Shown in pieces: positions 1,313 through 19,934 of a stretch of 24,066 nucleotides of DNA; position 1 is the first letter of the stretch, and every line of letters starts with the position of its first letter. The DNA comes from a virus. Lineage: Duplodnaviria; Caudoviricetes. The stretch lies in IMG/VR virus record IMGVR_UViG_3300020399_000009, positions 1 through 24,066 of that record. One strand, written 5' to 3'. Made by a program: the position numbers and the translations under genes. Below the pieces are notes generated by a model that did not search any database, had not been told where the DNA came from, and was given only the letters and a program-made list of their open reading frames with translations.

Positions 1313-1326
1313 TTACTGTATCTTTG
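1295..1326 (+). promoter_or_regulatory. Bacteroidota-type promoter firing antisense to the packaging operon
   Basis: TATCTTTG at 1319-1326 (TAnnTTTG) with TTG at 1295-1297 (21-nt spacer). Confidence 0.55.
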
Positions 1327-1332
1327 TAGTAA

Positions 1333-1458
1333 GTTGATGATGACGGTAAAGGGGCGGCCAACACCTAGCAGGTGACGGGGGCGGCCTACGGCTGATAGGG
1401 ACGGCGTCATCTGATATTAACCTGCATCTATAACCCCGCTCTTGTAGCGGGGTTTTAC
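1333..1458 (+). ncRNA. Putative structured small RNA convergent with the portal-MuF-nuclease gene
   Basis: Upstream promoter box and downstream + strand terminator; closing helix GTTGAT/ATTAAC plus GATGACG/CGTCATC; inner hairpins; G-rich. Confidence 0.5.
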
Positions 1459-1463
1459 TTTTT
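1432..1463 (+). terminator. Intrinsic terminator (+ strand)
   Basis: AACCCCGCT-cttgt-AGCGGGGTT followed by TTACTTTTT; no T-tract on the - strand side. Confidence 0.75.
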
Positions 1464-4106
1464 ATACACCAGCAGCCCGTTGCGGTGTTTGTTTAAGATT
1501 GTTCTTTTTTCGGTTAGCTCGTACCACGTAAGCAGCTCCATTGTTCCGTTTTTGATCGATGCCCTTACTGTGATTGTTTTATCAAGAAAGTATGAGATGT
1601 ACACCATCTCGCCCAGCTCTGCACCATTTAACCAAACCTCGTGTGGGGCTGTAAGCGTCTGGCCTAAAGCTTCAAGTAAACGCACTCGTTCTGCACGCCT
1701 TTTGGTATGCCGTTTAAAATTACCCTCTTTCACTTGTAGCGGCCGTTTGTGATAGTCTTTAATCACGCGTAGGTCATTAAGGCTTTCTAACTGGTCAAAG
1801 AATTCAGCAGCTGTGCCCTCATAAGTCTTTGTAGCTTCGGTGGCTTGCTTTTTGGCATTGCTGTAGCTGTCAAGACCCCAGTCTGCCGGTTTAAGCGTGT
1901 TGATCATTTTTGCAGCTTTCCCGGGAAACTTATGTACATACTGCTGGTTTGCGGTAAACACTTCTCCAGTTGCCGCACGGTTAACACCCCAACCTTGTAA
2001 TGCTTCGCTTTTAAACTGCTTGGAGTTTAGGTAGGCGTCAGCACGTTTGCGGGAAGCCCTCAGCTCTTCTTGAGTCACCTCGTTTTTTAAACGGGGCACA
2101 ATGTAGCAGCGGCAGTTCCATCCATTAGGCGGGAATAGCTTATCCCAGCGCTTATCATTAGAAGGTAAAACGAGACCGTTAAGGGCAGCGTGCTCTGGTC
2201 TTACCAGATGATCACCTGCGGTTTTATACTTCCAGTACGGGTATAGTTCTGTTTGCTTAATAAGCCTGTTATACGTTGCCGCAGCTTCTCCGGTAAGTAC
2301 CGCACTGGTGTACTCTGTCTCTAACCAGTTTTTATTAAAGACGCCTAAGCGCTCTTTAGCCATCTGGTAAAATTCTCTAAAGCTGGTAGCCTTTTTAAAT
2401 AGTTCGTTTAACTCGTACACCTCTGCTAAGGTTTTTGCTCCACTAAATCTAAATAAATTTTGCTCAAATGCAGTGAGCAGCGCAGGATCATCTATCCCAT
2501 ACACAAAGCCCGGCGCGTCTGCTAAAGTAATAGTGTTGGCTTTATCCCAAGCTTCTTTAAATCCCTTAAACAACGTGCTTGCTGTATAGTAAAAGAGCGC
2601 AGCATCAAAACTTACCTTCCCTTTTTGCTCCCATATACGATTGATCAACCCATCATTATCAAAGCCTTCAAGCGCTGCCAGATTGATCGTGTGGTGATGA
2701 CCACAGCTGGCTGTTGCCCCGGTCGTCTCCGCCGGGGCTTTTGAAAAAAAAGGTAAAAAGCGTTTAAGCCAGTTCAAGAACCCCCGATCAAGTTGCTCCT
2801 TGGTTTCCTCATCAGAAAGCGAAAGGTTCACCGCATCGGGATCTTCTTTTTTGTTAGCCTTTTTTGCCCCGGGTTTCGGTACCGGTGGCTTTTGTTCCTT
2901 CTGCTGAGCCTTAAGGCTATCGTAGTTCTCAGGCTTTGGCACGTCAAAAGTCTCGTAAAAGAAATCATCGTCAATGGGCAGTCCTAACTCTTTACGCATA
3001 GACTTGTACATCTCATAACTTTCCTTAACTGTGAGTTCCTGACTTTCGCCCTGAATGATAAAGCGACCACCTTGAGTATCAAACCCGGCACTTTGCAGGA
3101 TGCGTATAAAACGTGAGTTTAACACCCGTCTAACGTAGTTTAAATCGGTCTCGTGCTTGCTTTCGTCCTGCTCCTGATGGGTTTTACTCTGCGCATAGCC
3201 AGAGCTGGAGCTGCTCTCGGTAGTCTCGGTGGTACCAATTAAAGCCTTTGATATTTCGGCATTGAGAAAGCGCAAAAAGTTACCGTGCGCATCGCCCGTG
3301 GCATTGACGTTATTCTCTTTGATGTCGATGGTGGTTCCATCGGGTCGTATGATGGTACCGCCTGCGCCAATTTCCTGTAAAGCCTGCTGAAGCTGCACGC
3401 GTTGCTTCTCATCAAAGCCGTTCCACATTGCGTCGATCAAAGGATTCCCAAACGTCTGAATAAAGGCCGCATAATCGCCCAGCCCGCCACGTTTTAAAAT
3501 AGCGTATGGCGAGGCCTTCATATACAAGCCTAAATCTTTGATCTTGCCGACCTCCATAATGGTTTTGGCATAGATGCCTTCACGAATATTAACCCCCTCC
3601 TCGCTGTAGCTGTCATAACTCAGTATACCATTCTCAGGCCGGTAATTGAGACGCGGCAAAAGTCCGGCGTCCATTTCCCAGCTGCCGTCCTGATCTTGCC
3701 AAAAGGTGGGTTCCATCATAGAATAGCCCCAAAACTTTGCGTTCATAATCTCATCGAGCAGGTCGTCAAAACCAACGGAGTCAATTAGATCATTAACCGT
3801 ATCAACCGGCGTCCCTTCCTTATCTACAAATTGCCAGTTGGCTGCTTTGATAGGATCGCGACGCTTTCCGGTCACCGCCTCGACGTGACCGTCAAGGTCA
3901 ACATCGGCATAGAGGTTATACAATAGGCTGCGCCGTGGGATTTGAGATTCTGCGCTTTGAATTGCGCGCCTCCAGTTAGGGATGTCTTGCTCCGTACGAT
4001 TGTAAGGTCGTACCTCAATCTTGTGCAAAACTATCTGATCAGGAGCGCCAGCCGGTTTGGTAACCTTTGTCTTGGTTATTCGTTTATTAGATACTTTTCG
4101 TGCCAT
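1455..4106 (-). CDS. Portal protein (Mu gp29/DUF935-like) fused to MuF (gp30) head morphogenesis domain and a C-terminal PBECR-type nuclease-fold domain
   Basis: N-term DLDGHVEAVTGKRR, AKFWGYS, FIQTFGNP, NAEISKALIG, SGYAQSKTHQE (portal); YKTAGDHLVRPEH...PPNGWNCRC (MuF); TLTAPHEVW...VYISYF...LLTWY...RNGLLVY (PBECR2-like). Confidence 0.85.
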   Translation of the reverse strand: MARKVSNKRITKTKVTKPAGAPDQIVLHKIEVRPYNRTEQDIPNWRRAIQSAESQIPRRSLLYNLYADVDLDGHVEAVTGKRRDPIKAANWQFVDKEGTPVDTVNDLIDSVGFDDLLDEIMNAKFWGYSMMEPTFWQDQDGSWEMDAGLLPRLNYRPENGILSYDSYSEEGVNIREGIYAKTIMEVGKIKDLGLYMKASPYAILKRGGLGDYAAFIQTFGNPLIDAMWNGFDEKQRVQLQQALQEIGAGGTIIRPDGTTIDIKENNVNATGDAHGNFLRFLNAEISKALIGTTETTESSSSSGYAQSKTHQEQDESKHETDLNYVRRVLNSRFIRILQSAGFDTQGGRFIIQGESQELTVKESYEMYKSMRKELGLPIDDDFFYETFDVPKPENYDSLKAQQKEQKPPVPKPGAKKANKKEDPDAVNLSLSDEETKEQLDRGFLNWLKRFLPFFSKAPAETTGATASCGHHHTINLAALEGFDNDGLINRIWEQKGKVSFDAALFYYTASTLFKGFKEAWDKANTITLADAPGFVYGIDDPALLTAFEQNLFRFSGAKTLAEVYELNELFKKATSFREFYQMAKERLGVFNKNWLETEYTSAVLTGEAAATYNRLIKQTELYPYWKYKTAGDHLVRPEHAALNGLVLPSNDKRWDKLFPPNGWNCRCYIVPRLKNEVTQEELRASRKRADAYLNSKQFKSEALQGWGVNRAATGEVFTANQQYVHKFPGKAAKMINTLKPADWGLDSYSNAKKQATEATKTYEGTAAEFFDQLESLNDLRVIKDYHKRPLQVKEGNFKRHTKRRAERVRLLEALGQTLTAPHEVWLNGAELGEMVYISYFLDKTITVRASIKNGTMELLTWYELTEKRTILNKHRNGLLVYKK
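2716..2751 (-). promoter_or_regulatory. Candidate programmed -1 ribosomal frameshift signal in the portal/MuF linker
   Basis: - strand CCT TTT TTT TCA AAA then GCCCCGG-CG-GAGA-CG-A-CCGGGGC: in-frame heptamer, 6-nt spacer, GC hairpin. Confidence 0.65.
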
Positions 4107-10903: not shown

Positions 10904-11422
10904 ATGCCAAAGTATAGATATGGTCTCGCGAGCCTTAAAATCGACGACATTAATGAGGCAGACGGCTTGGGTGCCGGTAGCCCTACAGAACTGAAAGACG
11001 ACGTCTATCGTGACACGTTCAACATTGTTGAGGAGGAAGGTACTTCAACCCCTGTTTACAATGAGATGGACGTAGACCCGGTGATGGAGTTCACCGAGAA
11101 AGGTAGAATTTCTGCAACGCTCCAGATTATGGACACCAGCGTAGATACACTTGCCCTGCTTTGTGGCGGTGAAGTGGTAACCGTTGCCGGAACTTCCAAA
11201 ACGTGGAGCCGTCCTTCAGAAAACCTTCACGTTGAGAAACGCCTTGAATTTGAAACCCAAGATGGTTACAAGATCATCATACCTCGTGGGCGTGTAAATG
11301 CACGAATCAATCACCAAGTGCGCCGTAACGGTATTGCGCTTGTTGATGTGACTATTATGGCTCTTAAGCCATTGGTTGACGGTTTGGCTGCATTTGATAT
11401 GGTAGAACCAATTGAAGCGTAA
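10904..11422 (+). CDS. Major tail tube protein
   Basis: 172 aa beta-rich; KIIIPRGRVNA motif; upstream of chaperone and tape measure. Confidence 0.75.
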   Translation: MPKYRYGLASLKIDDINEADGLGAGSPTELKDDVYRDTFNIVEEEGTSTPVYNEMDVDPVMEFTEKGRISATLQIMDTSVDTLALLCGGEVVTVAGTSKTWSRPSENLHVEKRLEFETQDGYKIIIPRGRVNARINHQVRRNGIALVDVTIMALKPLVDGLAAFDMVEPIEA

Positions 11423-11919
11423 TGAAAACCGAGCATAAAGAAAATCCGGCAACGGAGCATCTCGCTGCTCAAACCATCCTACATAGGGGCGTCAAGGTAA
11501 AAGTTGCCGCCCCTTTTTTTCTAAGATGGTTTGGTAAGCGCACAATAACGCTGAAGCTCACCTCTCCTTATGAGGGCACCATGTACCGCGTGGCTGCATA
11601 TTACCTGAGCACCGGCCTTAAAGATCATAAGCTGGAAAATACCAGCACAGAAGAGGCTTTGGCATTGATGAGCCTACACGGTAAAAGCATAAGCAAAGCG
11701 GTGGCTTGTGCCATTCTTAACGGCTACTGGAGTGGCAAACTCTTTACGCGCTTATTAGCGTGGTACCTGCGATGGCATTGCAAACCGCGTGAACTTTTTG
11801 CACTCACCACCGCATTGCTAATTTACGGTGGTACCGCGGATTTTATGAGTACTACCAGATCGGTTCGCAAGATGAAACTGACGACTCCGAATCTGGGTCA
11901 GAACAATCAGGGGAGTTAA
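11422..11919 (+). CDS. Tail assembly chaperone (gpG-like)
   Basis: Between tube and tape measure; overlapped by a start-less -1 frame ORF. Confidence 0.75.
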   Translation: MKTEHKENPATEHLAAQTILHRGVKVKVAAPFFLRWFGKRTITLKLTSPYEGTMYRVAAYYLSTGLKDHKLENTSTEEALALMSLHGKSISKAVACAILNGYWSGKLFTRLLAWYLRWHCKPRELFALTTALLIYGGTADFMSTTRSVRKMKLTTPNLGQNNQGS

Positions 11920-12137
11920 AGCAAACCGGCTTACATAGCCCTTGGGGATTATTATACCAGATTATAAAGGAAACCGGCTGGACGTGGCATTATGTGCTGT
12001 GGAAAGTTTCCCGAGCAAACCTCCTGCTTATGATGGCAGATCGTGCCGGATTTAAGCACGTTGAAAAAGAAGACCAAGTAATTGAAGACACAGGCGCAGG
12101 CCTGTTTAACCGTATCAAAAAAGGTGGAAAGAATTGA
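11844..12137 (+). CDS. Tail assembly chaperone gpT-like segment, probably expressed as a G-T fusion by -1 frameshift (absent from ORF track)
   Basis: -1 frame open 11793-12134: YEYYQIG...LHSPWGLLYQIIKETGWTWHYVLWKVSRANLLLMMAD...GGKN*; G GAT TTT at 11838-11844. Confidence 0.7.
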   Translation, partial: YEYYQIGSQDETDDSESGSEQSGELKQTGLHSPWGLLYQIIKETGWTWHYVLWKVSRANLLLMMADRAGFKHVEKEDQVIEDTGAGLFNRIKKGGKN

Positions 12138-16523: not shown

Positions 16524-18121
16524 TGGATAAAAGATTCTGGAAAGGAATGGCCTACCGTACCGCCCTTAAGCGCAATGACAAGCTATTGGTGGGGAATATT
16601 GACAACGAGCAGCCTGAGTATATAGACGTTAGTGAAATTCTGAAGGCACTTACTACTGATGATCTTAGTGAAGGAGTAAATGCTAAGTATATGACTGCTG
16701 GCGAGCGTAGCAAGTTGGGAGCACTGCCTTCGTCTGCTTTGTCAGCTACGCAAATTGCACAAGGATATTACCCGCTTAATTCTAATCCCTCTGGTTATTT
16801 AACTGCTGCTAGTTCGCTCAGTTCGTCAAAACTTAGCGGTATGATTGCCGGTAGTATAATACCTGATCTCGATGCGGCTAAGATCGTGAGCGGCAATTTT
16901 GCAGCTGCACGTATAGGTGATTTGCCAGCATCGAAGGTAACAAGCGGCGTATTTAGTGTTAATCGCATACCTGATTTGCCTGCCTCAAAAATTACAGGCT
17001 TATCTGGAGAATTGGGTAACTATATCCCAACCAATCAAAAAGGCGCAGCTCTGGGTGTTACTCCACTTGATGAGAACGTCAAAATAGGGTTAGGTTATAT
17101 TCCTAATTTGGATGCCGCTAAAATAACAAGTGGAGTATTTGCAGACGCCCGTATTCCTGACAGTGTCCTACGTCGTGGTGAAATAGATCAACCATTGGGT
17201 GTTACGGGTCTGGATGAAAACGGAAAGGTGCGTATAGGAGCGTTACCTGATTCTATTCTAGGACAAGTAAAGTATGTGAGTACTTGGAATGCAGAAACAA
17301 ATATTCCTGAGCTTCCAGCAGCTAACGGTATTTGGGGCACGGGTGAAAAATATGAGGGTCTACCCGTTGATAGCTGCTTTTTTATAGTGGAAGTTGAAGG
17401 CGTCTATGAAGGTGTTGAATATAATACAGGAGACTGGATCATTAGCGATGGTGCGGTATGGAAAAAAGTAGATAACAGTGACGCCGTCACAACGGTATTT
17501 GGGCGTTTGGGTAATATCGTTGCTAATGAGACGGATTATGAAAGCTTTTACCCTAAGTTATCAGCAAGCTACTCCAACCCTTCTTGGATAAGTAGCCTGA
17601 CGCTTTCAAAAATTACCGGTTTATCAGATGCCCTAGCCGACAAAGTATCAACTACAGCTACCTACGCAAACCCCACTTGGATTACATCATTAGCTTTTTC
17701 AAAAATTACGGGAGTACCTGATTTTGCGCTTACCAGCGCGTTAAGTGCTTACGAGCCTACATTCACAAAAAATCAAGCTTTCAACAAGAATTTCGGAACA
17801 ACCGCGGGAACGGTGCTTGAGGGAATTAAAGACGGTACATACCTAAAAAAATCAGCTGTAGAAGAAGTTGTACTAAAAGATGATACCTCTAGGTCTATTA
17901 TGATAGGTAAAGAATTTGATGAAACTACATCAGAGTATCTTACCTGTGGTGAGCTAAATACACAAGGATATACTACGGCTAATGGATATGTTCAAGGTTC
18001 TGAAATTATCTGTAGAAATACTTCTAATGGATATGTTAGATATGAGAAAATGAGTGATGATAATAACGACTGGCTTGTATTTCACAATACTAATGGCTGG
18101 CAAATCTTACCTGTAATATAA
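16523..18121 (+). CDS. Tail fibre-like repeat protein
   Basis: PDLDAAKIxSGxF...RI repeats, GVTxLDENxK repeats, YxNPxWIxSLxxSKITG repeats. Confidence 0.7.
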   Translation: MDKRFWKGMAYRTALKRNDKLLVGNIDNEQPEYIDVSEILKALTTDDLSEGVNAKYMTAGERSKLGALPSSALSATQIAQGYYPLNSNPSGYLTAASSLSSSKLSGMIAGSIIPDLDAAKIVSGNFAAARIGDLPASKVTSGVFSVNRIPDLPASKITGLSGELGNYIPTNQKGAALGVTPLDENVKIGLGYIPNLDAAKITSGVFADARIPDSVLRRGEIDQPLGVTGLDENGKVRIGALPDSILGQVKYVSTWNAETNIPELPAANGIWGTGEKYEGLPVDSCFFIVEVEGVYEGVEYNTGDWIISDGAVWKKVDNSDAVTTVFGRLGNIVANETDYESFYPKLSASYSNPSWISSLTLSKITGLSDALADKVSTTATYANPTWITSLAFSKITGVPDFALTSALSAYEPTFTKNQAFNKNFGTTAGTVLEGIKDGTYLKKSAVEEVVLKDDTSRSIMIGKEFDETTSEYLTCGELNTQGYTTANGYVQGSEIICRNTSNGYVRYEKMSDDNNDWLVFHNTNGWQILPVI

Positions 18122-19740
18122 TGGCAGCTTCAATTAATAGTATAGATAGATTTCCTACAACTAATAATGATTTAGTTGAAGTAGGTAACAGAATTTTTTT
18201 ATGTAGAAATACAGGAAGTTTGATTTTAGAATTAGAGGTAAATGGAACGCATTTTCCTTCTCTAAGTGGTAACTACAATTTCGCATTTTCTGTTTTTGAA
18301 TGTACCAATATTTTCGGAAAATCTGGCTCAATATTTATAGACTACGCTGATGGCACTGGTGAACACGAATATCCTTTTAAAGAGAGCACAGACTTTAAGA
18401 TGAGGTTGGCTAAGACAGCAAATAATCAACTACCACCAAATCCTACAAGGGCAGATTATAGTGAAATTGGCTTCTATAATTATCCCATATATTTTTTTGA
18501 TGATATTGACCCAAGTGTTCCAATTGATGATAATTACCCAGTTACTCGAAAAATAAAAATACGATTCCCAAGGTTCCAAGATTTATTAATTTTTAATTTA
18601 AGATATACTGGGTTATTAGGAGAATTACCAAGTGCGATTGGTAGGTTTAGAAATCTAGATAGTTTATCAATATTTAGATCAGAAAATCTAGATAGTTTAG
18701 GAAGTGATTTTGATAAAGTTTTTTGTAAAAACTTAACTTTAGGAGGGTTAGGATTTTCATTTTCTGTAGGTATACCGGAATTTATACTGAACTCAAATAG
18801 TTTAGAATATGTAAACCTTAACAGTGCAGTAACTCTTAGCGGAACAAATTCAGAATCTAAACTAGATAGATTCTTTTCCAATGAGTTACCTAATTTAAAT
18901 GGGTTTGATTTATCTAGTACAAAAATAGACACACGAATACCAGATTTCCATAAAGATATTACTGGTGAAATTGGTTTTTCGGGTCAAAATACATCAGGCT
19001 TTTTATTTTCTAATAATCTATCTAACTGGAAAGGTAGCTTATCTATCAGTAACTCAACAAGTTTACCTGATTCAGAAATTGTTAGAGTTTTAGAAGATTC
19101 TTCTATAACAAGTTTTAACGCTGTATCTAATAGTTTTAACTTAGATATTATAACAACTGAAATAAACACCACTATAAGGTTACTAATATTAGGTAGAGGA
19201 GATAGTTTTGGAGGGTCATTACCTTCTTTTTTAGGCAATTTAACAGCTTTAGATAGTCTTTATTTTGGTGATTTTGGAAATGGGCAAGATTTCCCACAGT
19301 TAAAGTTTTACGGTAATAACCCTTTACCTAATTCCTTATCACATTTACAACTTTCAAAAAATACAGATTTAGAAGTAACTGTACCTACTTGGTTTGGCAC
19401 ACTAAATTTAAATCGTTTTCAGTCTTGGTCTTGGCAAACTCAAAGTAGAATAAATACTCACGTTGAAAATTTCTATTCTGTCGTAGAATCCACTAATGCT
19501 ATGACGGGTAGCACATACTTAAGAGGGTTGGATTACCAGTTGGTCAACACAAACTTAAATCTAAATACCAACCCTAGACCTTCTGGAACCTATGAAGCAC
19601 CTACAGGTTACATTCAAGGGTCAGCTAATGGAACACCAACAAGCCCAATGCAGGCTATATATGTGTTAGTAAATCAATATAACATGACTGTTACTGTTTT
19701 AAATGAACTTGGTAACGGCAAAGACATTTATACACCATGA
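18121..19740 (+). CDS. Leucine-rich-repeat protein in tail module (possible receptor-binding or accessory protein)
   Basis: LLGELPSAIGRFRNLDSLSI, FGGSLPSFLGNLTALDSLYF, LPNLNGFDLSST; low GC. Confidence 0.7.
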   Translation: MAASINSIDRFPTTNNDLVEVGNRIFLCRNTGSLILELEVNGTHFPSLSGNYNFAFSVFECTNIFGKSGSIFIDYADGTGEHEYPFKESTDFKMRLAKTANNQLPPNPTRADYSEIGFYNYPIYFFDDIDPSVPIDDNYPVTRKIKIRFPRFQDLLIFNLRYTGLLGELPSAIGRFRNLDSLSIFRSENLDSLGSDFDKVFCKNLTLGGLGFSFSVGIPEFILNSNSLEYVNLNSAVTLSGTNSESKLDRFFSNELPNLNGFDLSSTKIDTRIPDFHKDITGEIGFSGQNTSGFLFSNNLSNWKGSLSISNSTSLPDSEIVRVLEDSSITSFNAVSNSFNLDIITTEINTTIRLLILGRGDSFGGSLPSFLGNLTALDSLYFGDFGNGQDFPQLKFYGNNPLPNSLSHLQLSKNTDLEVTVPTWFGTLNLNRFQSWSWQTQSRINTHVENFYSVVESTNAMTGSTYLRGLDYQLVNTNLNLNTNPRPSGTYEAPTGYIQGSANGTPTSPMQAIYVLVNQYNMTVTVLNELGNGKDIYTP

Positions 19741-19934
19741 GAATAATCATAATACACGACGGAATTAAGATTAAATCAGTTCACTTAGCAACTGAAAATA
19801 CCACAATCATAGGTAGCTCATCTTTTATAGTTGACGATGTAGATAAGGCTACAGCACAGGCTACTGAATACCCGTTACAAGAATTGAATAAAATTACTGA
19901 TTTTATAGCAGAGATTGAAACTATGAATAAGTAA
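19737..19934 (+). CDS. Small hypothetical protein coupled to the LRR gene
   Basis: ATGA overlap; 65 aa; same low-GC composition. Confidence 0.6.
   Translation: MRIIIIHDGIKIKSVHLATENTTIIGSSSFIVDDVDKATAQATEYPLQELNKITDFIAEIETMNK

Follow-up and report, generated by a model that had tools for sequence, protein, structure and literature searches.

A probable programmed -1 frameshift at the portal/MuF junction of Mu-like phages

The virus record IMGVR_UViG_3300020399_000009 (Duplodnaviria, Caudoviricetes) is a 24-kb record, ~42% complete, whose full stretch of 24,066 nucleotides is referred to here as the window. It carries on the minus strand a gene (1455-4106; open reading frame (ORF) and Pfam matches) for a portal-MuF-PBECR2 protein, the 0-frame product of which comprises 883 amino acids (aa; 100.5 kDa). 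At the portal/MuF junction of this gene, a conserved run of U followed by a GC-rich hairpin very probably causes a programmed -1 ribosomal frameshift, as judged from the sequence and its conservation, and the one gene would thus yield the 883-aa fusion as well as a bare portal of 479 aa.

The slippery heptamer U UUU UUU (2745-2751, minus strand) stands in the portal frame at codons F453-F454, within a run of eight T (T8; 2751-2744). A spacer of 6 nt (2739-2744) separates it from the putative stimulatory hairpin (2716-2738), which has a stem of 7+2 bp, a GAGA loop and one bulged A (-17.9 kcal/mol; z -4.0; none of 200 shuffled sequences as stable) and is more stable than 200 of 200 synonymous recodings. 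Slipping by -1 leads into a tail of 25 aa with a TGA stop (2670-2668; tail and stop 2668-2745), which ends the predicted portal-only product (479 aa, ~54 kDa). In the heptamer, the spacer, the hairpin with its GAGA loop, the -1 stop and the lengths of the two products, the sequence agrees with the original prediction, made from the letters of this DNA alone. The 23 genes of the window contain 46 canonical heptamers in frame within 7,650 codons, and only two of these have a hairpin of -8 kcal/mol or below 5-9 nt downstream, the portal/MuF site being by far the stronger (-17.9 versus -8.9 kcal/mol). The T8 signal is not an assembly artefact, because contigs of four sequencing runs show no substitution or indel over 2707-2753 (one run differs at 12 places in 2754-2786; seven weaker differences are not displayed, and one run is possibly the source of the record). 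Five other records share the T8.

The shift could proceed as follows. The ribosome would stall at the hairpin 6 nt downstream with two tRNA-Phe on UUU UUU (2750-2745). Both of these would re-pair one base back without mismatch, and the shifted ribosome would read 25 codons and stop. We infer that fusion and bare portal would co-assemble in mixed portal rings, so that the shift rate would set the number of subunits bringing MuF and nuclease into the head, and a rationed covalent link would replace the non-covalent binding of MuF to the portal. As the cargo-bearing form is the default product in the fused layout, few cargo copies would require frequent shifting; we lean slightly towards the bare portal making up at least half of the product in the window phage.

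The conservation of the signal was analyzed in 397 loci collected by protein similarity. Of these, 58 without an intact portal and MuF match (11 of them with a broken portal) were dropped, and the remaining 339 were thinned at 85% portal identity to 148 representatives (74 each of the fused and the split type). A spurious anchor (L020) was excluded. Fused proteins served as queries, and fusions are therefore over-represented in the set. Scanning genome contigs for the locus with a single protein gave no result, alignments being required. At the protein level, an FF, LF or VF dipeptide precedes A-P in 118 of 120 fused homologues, and 55 of the 74 fused loci possess an FFxxAP anchor. A conserved T-run coding for this peptide had been predicted, and this was borne out: fused FF sites are coded xxT TTT TTY in 44 of 44 cases, versus 9.8 expected by codon usage and 5/67 for other FF pairs in the same genes. 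Furthermore, the Ala codon of the fused anchor is GCC in 53/55 sites (background 34%), and GCYY is found at offset 6 in 52/55, i.e. the spacer is fixed in length and free in sequence. Two fused loci without anchor (L122, L497) resemble the split class except for an additional T in their run, and may represent real variants or homopolymer errors.

Most relatives have the mirror layout, in which the portal frame ends at a stop and MuF would be reached via the shift. Here, MuF lies in the -1 frame in 69 split loci, 60 of which have a canonical heptamer within the overlap (34 U7, 10 A AAU UUY, 16 A7); among control gene ends, heptamer plus hairpin occurs in 2 of 699. A hairpin accompanies the heptamer in 41 of the 60, and only three have an ATG near the stop, the other 57 reaching MuF without a nearby ATG. 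The nine split loci without heptamer have an ATG near the stop (six), a GTG (one), an ATG 25 nt upstream (one) or a broken MuF (one). From these counts, the slippery site and an own MuF start codon are largely mutually exclusive. Note that a -1 overlap is the usual phase of coupled genes; the -1 frame bias of the split loci was therefore rejected as stand-alone evidence and not counted. The U-type signal is present in hankyphage p00, TCUEAP3 (annotated MuF start 276 nt past the portal stop) and Porphyromonas gingivalis phage007a (fused), and the A type in fF4 and Peternella_1. In hankyphage-like split loci (L163, L168, L170, L172, L208, L275) the 0-frame portal tail ends with L-[DE]-W or D-F; 11/39 members of this class also possess an ATG close to the stop, and MuF may be made there both free and fused.

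IMG/VR was also scanned with the nucleotide pattern alone. An estimated ~2,700 stretches carry it with a 6-nt spacer, ~310 with 5 nt and ~220 with 7 nt, the abundance peaking about tenfold at exactly 6 nt. Among 120 matches listed of the ~2,700, 109 have portal and/or MuF profile matches, 101 of 102 heptamers stand in the portal frame, and MuF lies in frame -1 relative to the portal in 63, in frame 0 in 12 and in frame +1 in none, as expected from the prediction that MuF follows in the 0 or -1 frame. One of the remaining 11 matches (L192, 158-798, minus strand) has U7, 6 nt and a GC hairpin at the end of a gene for a tail assembly chaperone that is followed by a -1 ORF; this classic -1 site is a natural positive control. 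Three other stretches (L169, L173, L167; near 1600-1634, minus strand) carry the motif in frame within long ORFs without known function; the -1 frame then stops 1-4 codons on, and these sites may represent truncating frameshifts in fibre-like genes.

The stem itself covaries, as had been predicted. Its inner positions 6-7 pair in 148 of 174 cells (89 U-type sites), versus a mean of 75 and a maximum of 102 when the arms are swapped between loci, and position 6 is occupied by GC in 51, UA in 13, AU in 12 and CG in 9 cases. Four T follow the stem on the plus strand of the window, where it could be taken for an intrinsic terminator or a DNA hairpin, but the terminator scan does not call it, the four T derive from the spacer (at least four A there in only 6/89 sites), the U-run lies before the stem on the coding strand, and codon phase would be irrelevant to a terminator. 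The probability of this explanation is negligible.

Slippage of RNA polymerase on the T-run, adding a base, would lead to the same two products. This process needs a homopolymer of ~9 or more A/T and is independent of codon phase. The T8 of the window speaks for it, as does a class of A-rich junctions with runs of 9-11 A (13/14 split and 9/12 fused loci), mostly without hairpin. The U class, however, has a run of just 6 T in 34/55 fused and 31/34 split sites (65/89), locked to codon phase in 44/44 cases, and in ten split loci the heptamer is A AAU UUY and hence not a homopolymer; moreover, the downstream hairpin is not yet transcribed while the polymerase sits on the run. Polymerase slippage is thus a very improbable origin of the two products, even though A-class junctions may use it. 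Members of the A-rich class include split L021, L024, L028, L029, L137, L277 and L279 and fused L017, L061, L077, L119, L121 and L138; in six fused A-rich loci the -1 frame stops within 1-2 codons.

A ribosomal shift should produce a tail read in the -1 frame, and the tail is under protein-level selection, as far as its sequence pattern tells; this goes beyond the original prediction. In the window it contains W-S-S-P-H (2689-2703, minus strand), overlapping G-H-H-H-T of the 0 frame (dual coding). W-x-[SN]-P-H followed by 0-7 residues ends the -1 tail in 35/55 fused loci in its strict form and in 46 with conservative changes; it is absent from the remaining 42,580 -1 positions in these genes and from all 34 split loci. 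W..PH is found in 36 of the 46 relaxed-motif rows versus 1.6 expected from the 0-frame protein alone (note that these rows were picked for the relaxed motif). The codons are diverse (Ser TCN 17, AGY 16; Pro all four), as are the residues that the 0 frame places over the Pro wobble (H 22, R 11, L 7, P 6). No selection for a quick stop was detected in the tails (length 9-33 codons, background median 9). As the -1 tail itself is under selection, the portal-only product is likely made and functional. The features of a programmed -1 site are therefore found together here: an X XXY YYZ heptamer in the frame of the upstream ORF, a 3' structure 5-9 nt away and selection on both frames.

Several observations weigh against this interpretation. 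The 3' arm of the hairpin was picked by best match, which inflates the pairing counts, and just 32 of the 55 fused hairpins rank within the top 1% when compared with synonymous recodings. In 19 of the 74 fused loci the rule used finds no FFxxAP anchor (mostly A-rich sites, 2-3 without a site). The heptamer is weakened in 11/55 fused sites, with CUU or GUU (mostly CUU) instead of the first UUU in ten and UCU in one; the ten CUU/GUU sites retain U UUU and the stem. Frameshifting may therefore be low at these sites, which suggest that some phages make mostly fusion. Moreover, the 53 loci with P-H in the tail all belong to one MuF clade and are thus not independent, although their portals share only 21-92% identity (median 36%) with that of the window. 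Mass spectrometry of hankyphage virions lists 20 portal and three MuF peptides (PMC12135933, S6 table), but it cannot tell a fusion from a smear and is uninformative, because small proteins also occur in the 250-85 kDa slice.

The weakened heptamers would suit an element that is a relic, or a pause or processing signal, in fused loci, with only the fusion being made and any short portal arising by proteolysis. Permanent portal-MuF fusions exist in Microbacterium phage clusters EA and EB (PMC7302621), and some loci have a second hairpin overlapping the tail motif. Yet in a relic the synonymous choices would not have stayed intact in 44/44 cases when the portals have a median identity of 36%. 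The second hairpin has little stability (window z -1.5; 20/200 shuffles) and is missing from many loci, and the tail motif varies conservatively at the protein level, with W replaced by F or Y in eight loci without a compensating change in the would-be partner bases. We regard a relic or pause signal as quite unlikely and a programmed shift as the preferred explanation.

In the host genes dnaX and copA, shifted ribosomes stop almost at once; in dnaX, the 0 frame encodes the long tau and the -1 shift gives the shorter gamma, both of which join one oligomer. E. coli copA likewise encodes a long protein in the 0 frame and a shorter functional protein via the -1 shift (PMC5009743). The portal gene differs from both in that a tail of 15-33 aa with its own conserved motif would be read, and in that the signal also serves the opposite layout in relatives. 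In lambda, SPP1 (17.5/17.5*) and other long-tailed phages, the G/GT tail chaperone frameshift (PMC5009743, PMC6316719) similarly fixes the ratio of two products by a -1 shift in a morphogenesis gene, and the putative SPP1 site UUUUUUC is the same heptamer as at portal/MuF junctions. However, the products here are parts of the virion head (portal with or without MuF-nuclease), and the shift in the window truncates rather than extends. Genes of the G/GT family lie between the major tail and tape measure genes, and the site described here is in the portal gene; it works like G/GT and is not a member. Frameshift extensions of capsid or tail tube proteins are known for T3, T7, A2, A118, A500 and PSA (PMC5009743) and for SPP1 gp17.1*. 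As proposed here, a share of the subunits of a virion oligomer bears an extra C-terminal domain in these cases, but their domains are displayed outside, whereas the portal would carry an internal MuF-effector cargo.

MuF is known to reach the head via the portal in few copies, as in SPP1 gp6/gp7 and for MuF polymorphic toxins, and portal-MuF-PBECR fusions and variable MuF toxin tips have already been described (PMC6316719, PMC5512222, PMC11699363, PMC7302621). Binding of portal and MuF is non-covalent in SPP1, whereas a covalent link is proposed here. The parts of these four papers that were covered describe no recoding at the portal/MuF junction, the genes being separate or simply fused. In line with the original prediction, which knew of no such case, no portal/MuF frameshift was found in the literature searched, which comprised parts of papers available without subscription (including PMC10367356, PMC7761591 and PMC12135933); the word "portal" does not occur in the first 300,000 of the 449,034 characters of PMC5009743 or in the covered main text of PMC3711429 (without supplements). 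The mechanism is known and the target apparently undescribed; the polarity is truncating and the tail dual-coded. If confirmed, the portal, an essential dodecameric part of the virion, would join the short list of phage recoding targets, there would be a direct mechanism for the low-copy entry of MuF and its effector tips into heads, and many annotated MuF starts and portal ends in Bacteroidota Mu-like phages would be wrong. The signal is widespread (the ~2,700 IMG/VR stretches with the narrow motif, as well as hankyphage p00, P. gingivalis phage007a and TCUEAP3), and its two mirror layouts represent a natural experiment on frameshift efficiency in Bacteroidota.

Switches between the fused and split states number 21 on the portal tree (of which at least 13 are forced; five short portals left out) and 12 on the MuF tree (at least six forced), and the tail-bearing fused loci form one clade on the latter. 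To count the 21 portal-tree switches as independent frame changes would be an overstatement, as the MuF tree forces only at least six. Since the MuF tree forces few changes and the tail-bearing loci are a single clade, many switches are module swaps. Indeed, portals of the window clade are paired with a different, split MuF in L005 and L015, and MuF of the window type is found on distant portals in L006, L090, L300 and L335. Because portals and MuF types are recombined across these loci, the junction appears from sequence comparison to be also a point of module swapping. The C-terminal tips behind MuF are variable, as in MuF polymorphic toxins (PBECR2, CdiA_C, LPD3, deamidase, ART and HINT in 84 proteins scanned; PBECR2 in the window). 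The catalytic histidine of the PBECR2 tip (H800) is kept in only 66/120 close homologues, and inactivation of the tip therefore looks common while the fusion is retained.

Behind the nuclease, the window contains a predicted antisense unit (1319-1463, plus strand) with a promoter (1319-1326), a structured RNA of ~130 nt and an intrinsic terminator (1432-1454) with T-tract. The promoter carries what we take to be a Bacteroidota-type -7 element (consensus TAnnTTTG). The gap preceding the neck gene could be measured in 47 fused PBECR2 loci. It spans 120-250 nt in each of the 34 loci retaining H800, versus -29 to +7 in 13/13 loci lacking it; 33 of the 34 gaps hold an antisense TAnnTTTG promoter and a structured RNA, and most also a terminator at the nuclease stop. 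H800 was lost in eight changes on the tree (five forced), and 5/5 independent pairs agree, a number that does not suffice for p<0.05. Antisense promoters lie 40-260 nt past the stop of CdiA_C (18/19), LPD3 (3/3) and other PBECR2 tips (12/14; background 29/444) as well. Contigs of RNA runs include neither this unit nor the portal/MuF junction, which is no evidence either way.

We rate the chances that this unit is an RNA antitoxin as about even. No immunity protein gene was found in the 142-nt gap, which has no antisense ORF of at least 25 aa and one sense ORF of 33 codons that is not conserved. Closing stems of at least 8 bp occur in 21/33 RNAs versus 18% across loci. The RNA has neither a tRNA call (ARAGORN) nor an Rfam match at gathering score, RNAalifold on a MAFFT alignment gave no consensus pairs, and the named helices are barely above shuffles (70.6% versus 67.4%; 21/500). 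The idea of an anticodon mimic was rejected, a strict anticodon loop (7 nt) being present in 4/33 RNAs and equally often in shuffles, and a sequence-only model of the RNA retrieved near-copies only, among 82 sources. An RNA antitoxin for PBECR was not found in the partly covered, subscription-free literature searched. The unit points to a possible new RNA-based immunity against virion RNases. A wider scheme is more doubtful and is put forward only tentatively. In it, the junction would be a recoding hub that rations a virion-delivered effector, using the same slippery hairpin in either polarity and serving as swap point for MuF-toxin modules. The fused polarity would shift very efficiently, the W-x-S-P-H product would be the main portal subunit, and the RNase would be checked by an undescribed small antisense-encoded RNA antitoxin, lost whenever the catalytic His is lost.

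The domains of the 883-aa protein are arranged around the shift site. The Mu-type portal core (DUF935; 2943-3920; Pfam Portal_Mu, aa 63-388), common to both products, has the JBD30 and Mu portals as best fold matches of its structure model. The MuF core follows at 2100-2381 (Phage_Mu_F, aa 576-669), with the folded MuF region beginning near aa 480 in the model, and PBECR2, a predicted RNase, at 1461-1787 (aa 774-882; all on the minus strand), identified by Pfam and by the His-in-helix active-site pattern (PMC5512222). The shift site coincides with the modelled portal/MuF domain boundary. The linker (aa 406-473), within which the site lies, has low confidence and holds one predicted helix (aa 434-450) just upstream of the site. 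This helix may either belong to the structure of the portal C-terminus or act as a modulator within the nascent peptide. Encoded at 2757-2807 (minus strand) and typically reading W-x-x-L-x-x-F-F, it is found ahead of the site in fused loci and in closely related split ones.

The minus strand of the window encodes small and large terminase, a gp36-like adaptor, the 883-aa protein and neck and terminator proteins, and the plus strand protease, capsid, lysis and tail proteins. This is the head-module order of Mu-like Bacteroidota phages (TerL, gp36-like adaptor, DUF935 portal, MuF, neck gene), identical in hankyphage p00, phage007a, fF4 and TCUEAP3. No transposase (DDE type sought) was found among 18 window proteins scanned, the record being a 42% complete fragment. 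Behind a chaperone-like gene (11422-11919, plus strand), no canonical heptamer with hairpin was found at 11919-12100, where a conserved-looking -1 ORF extends past the gene. A leucine-rich ORF of 539 aa without Pfam match (18121-19934, plus strand) lies amid the tail genes in a region with a GC content of 31-32%, compared with ~45%.

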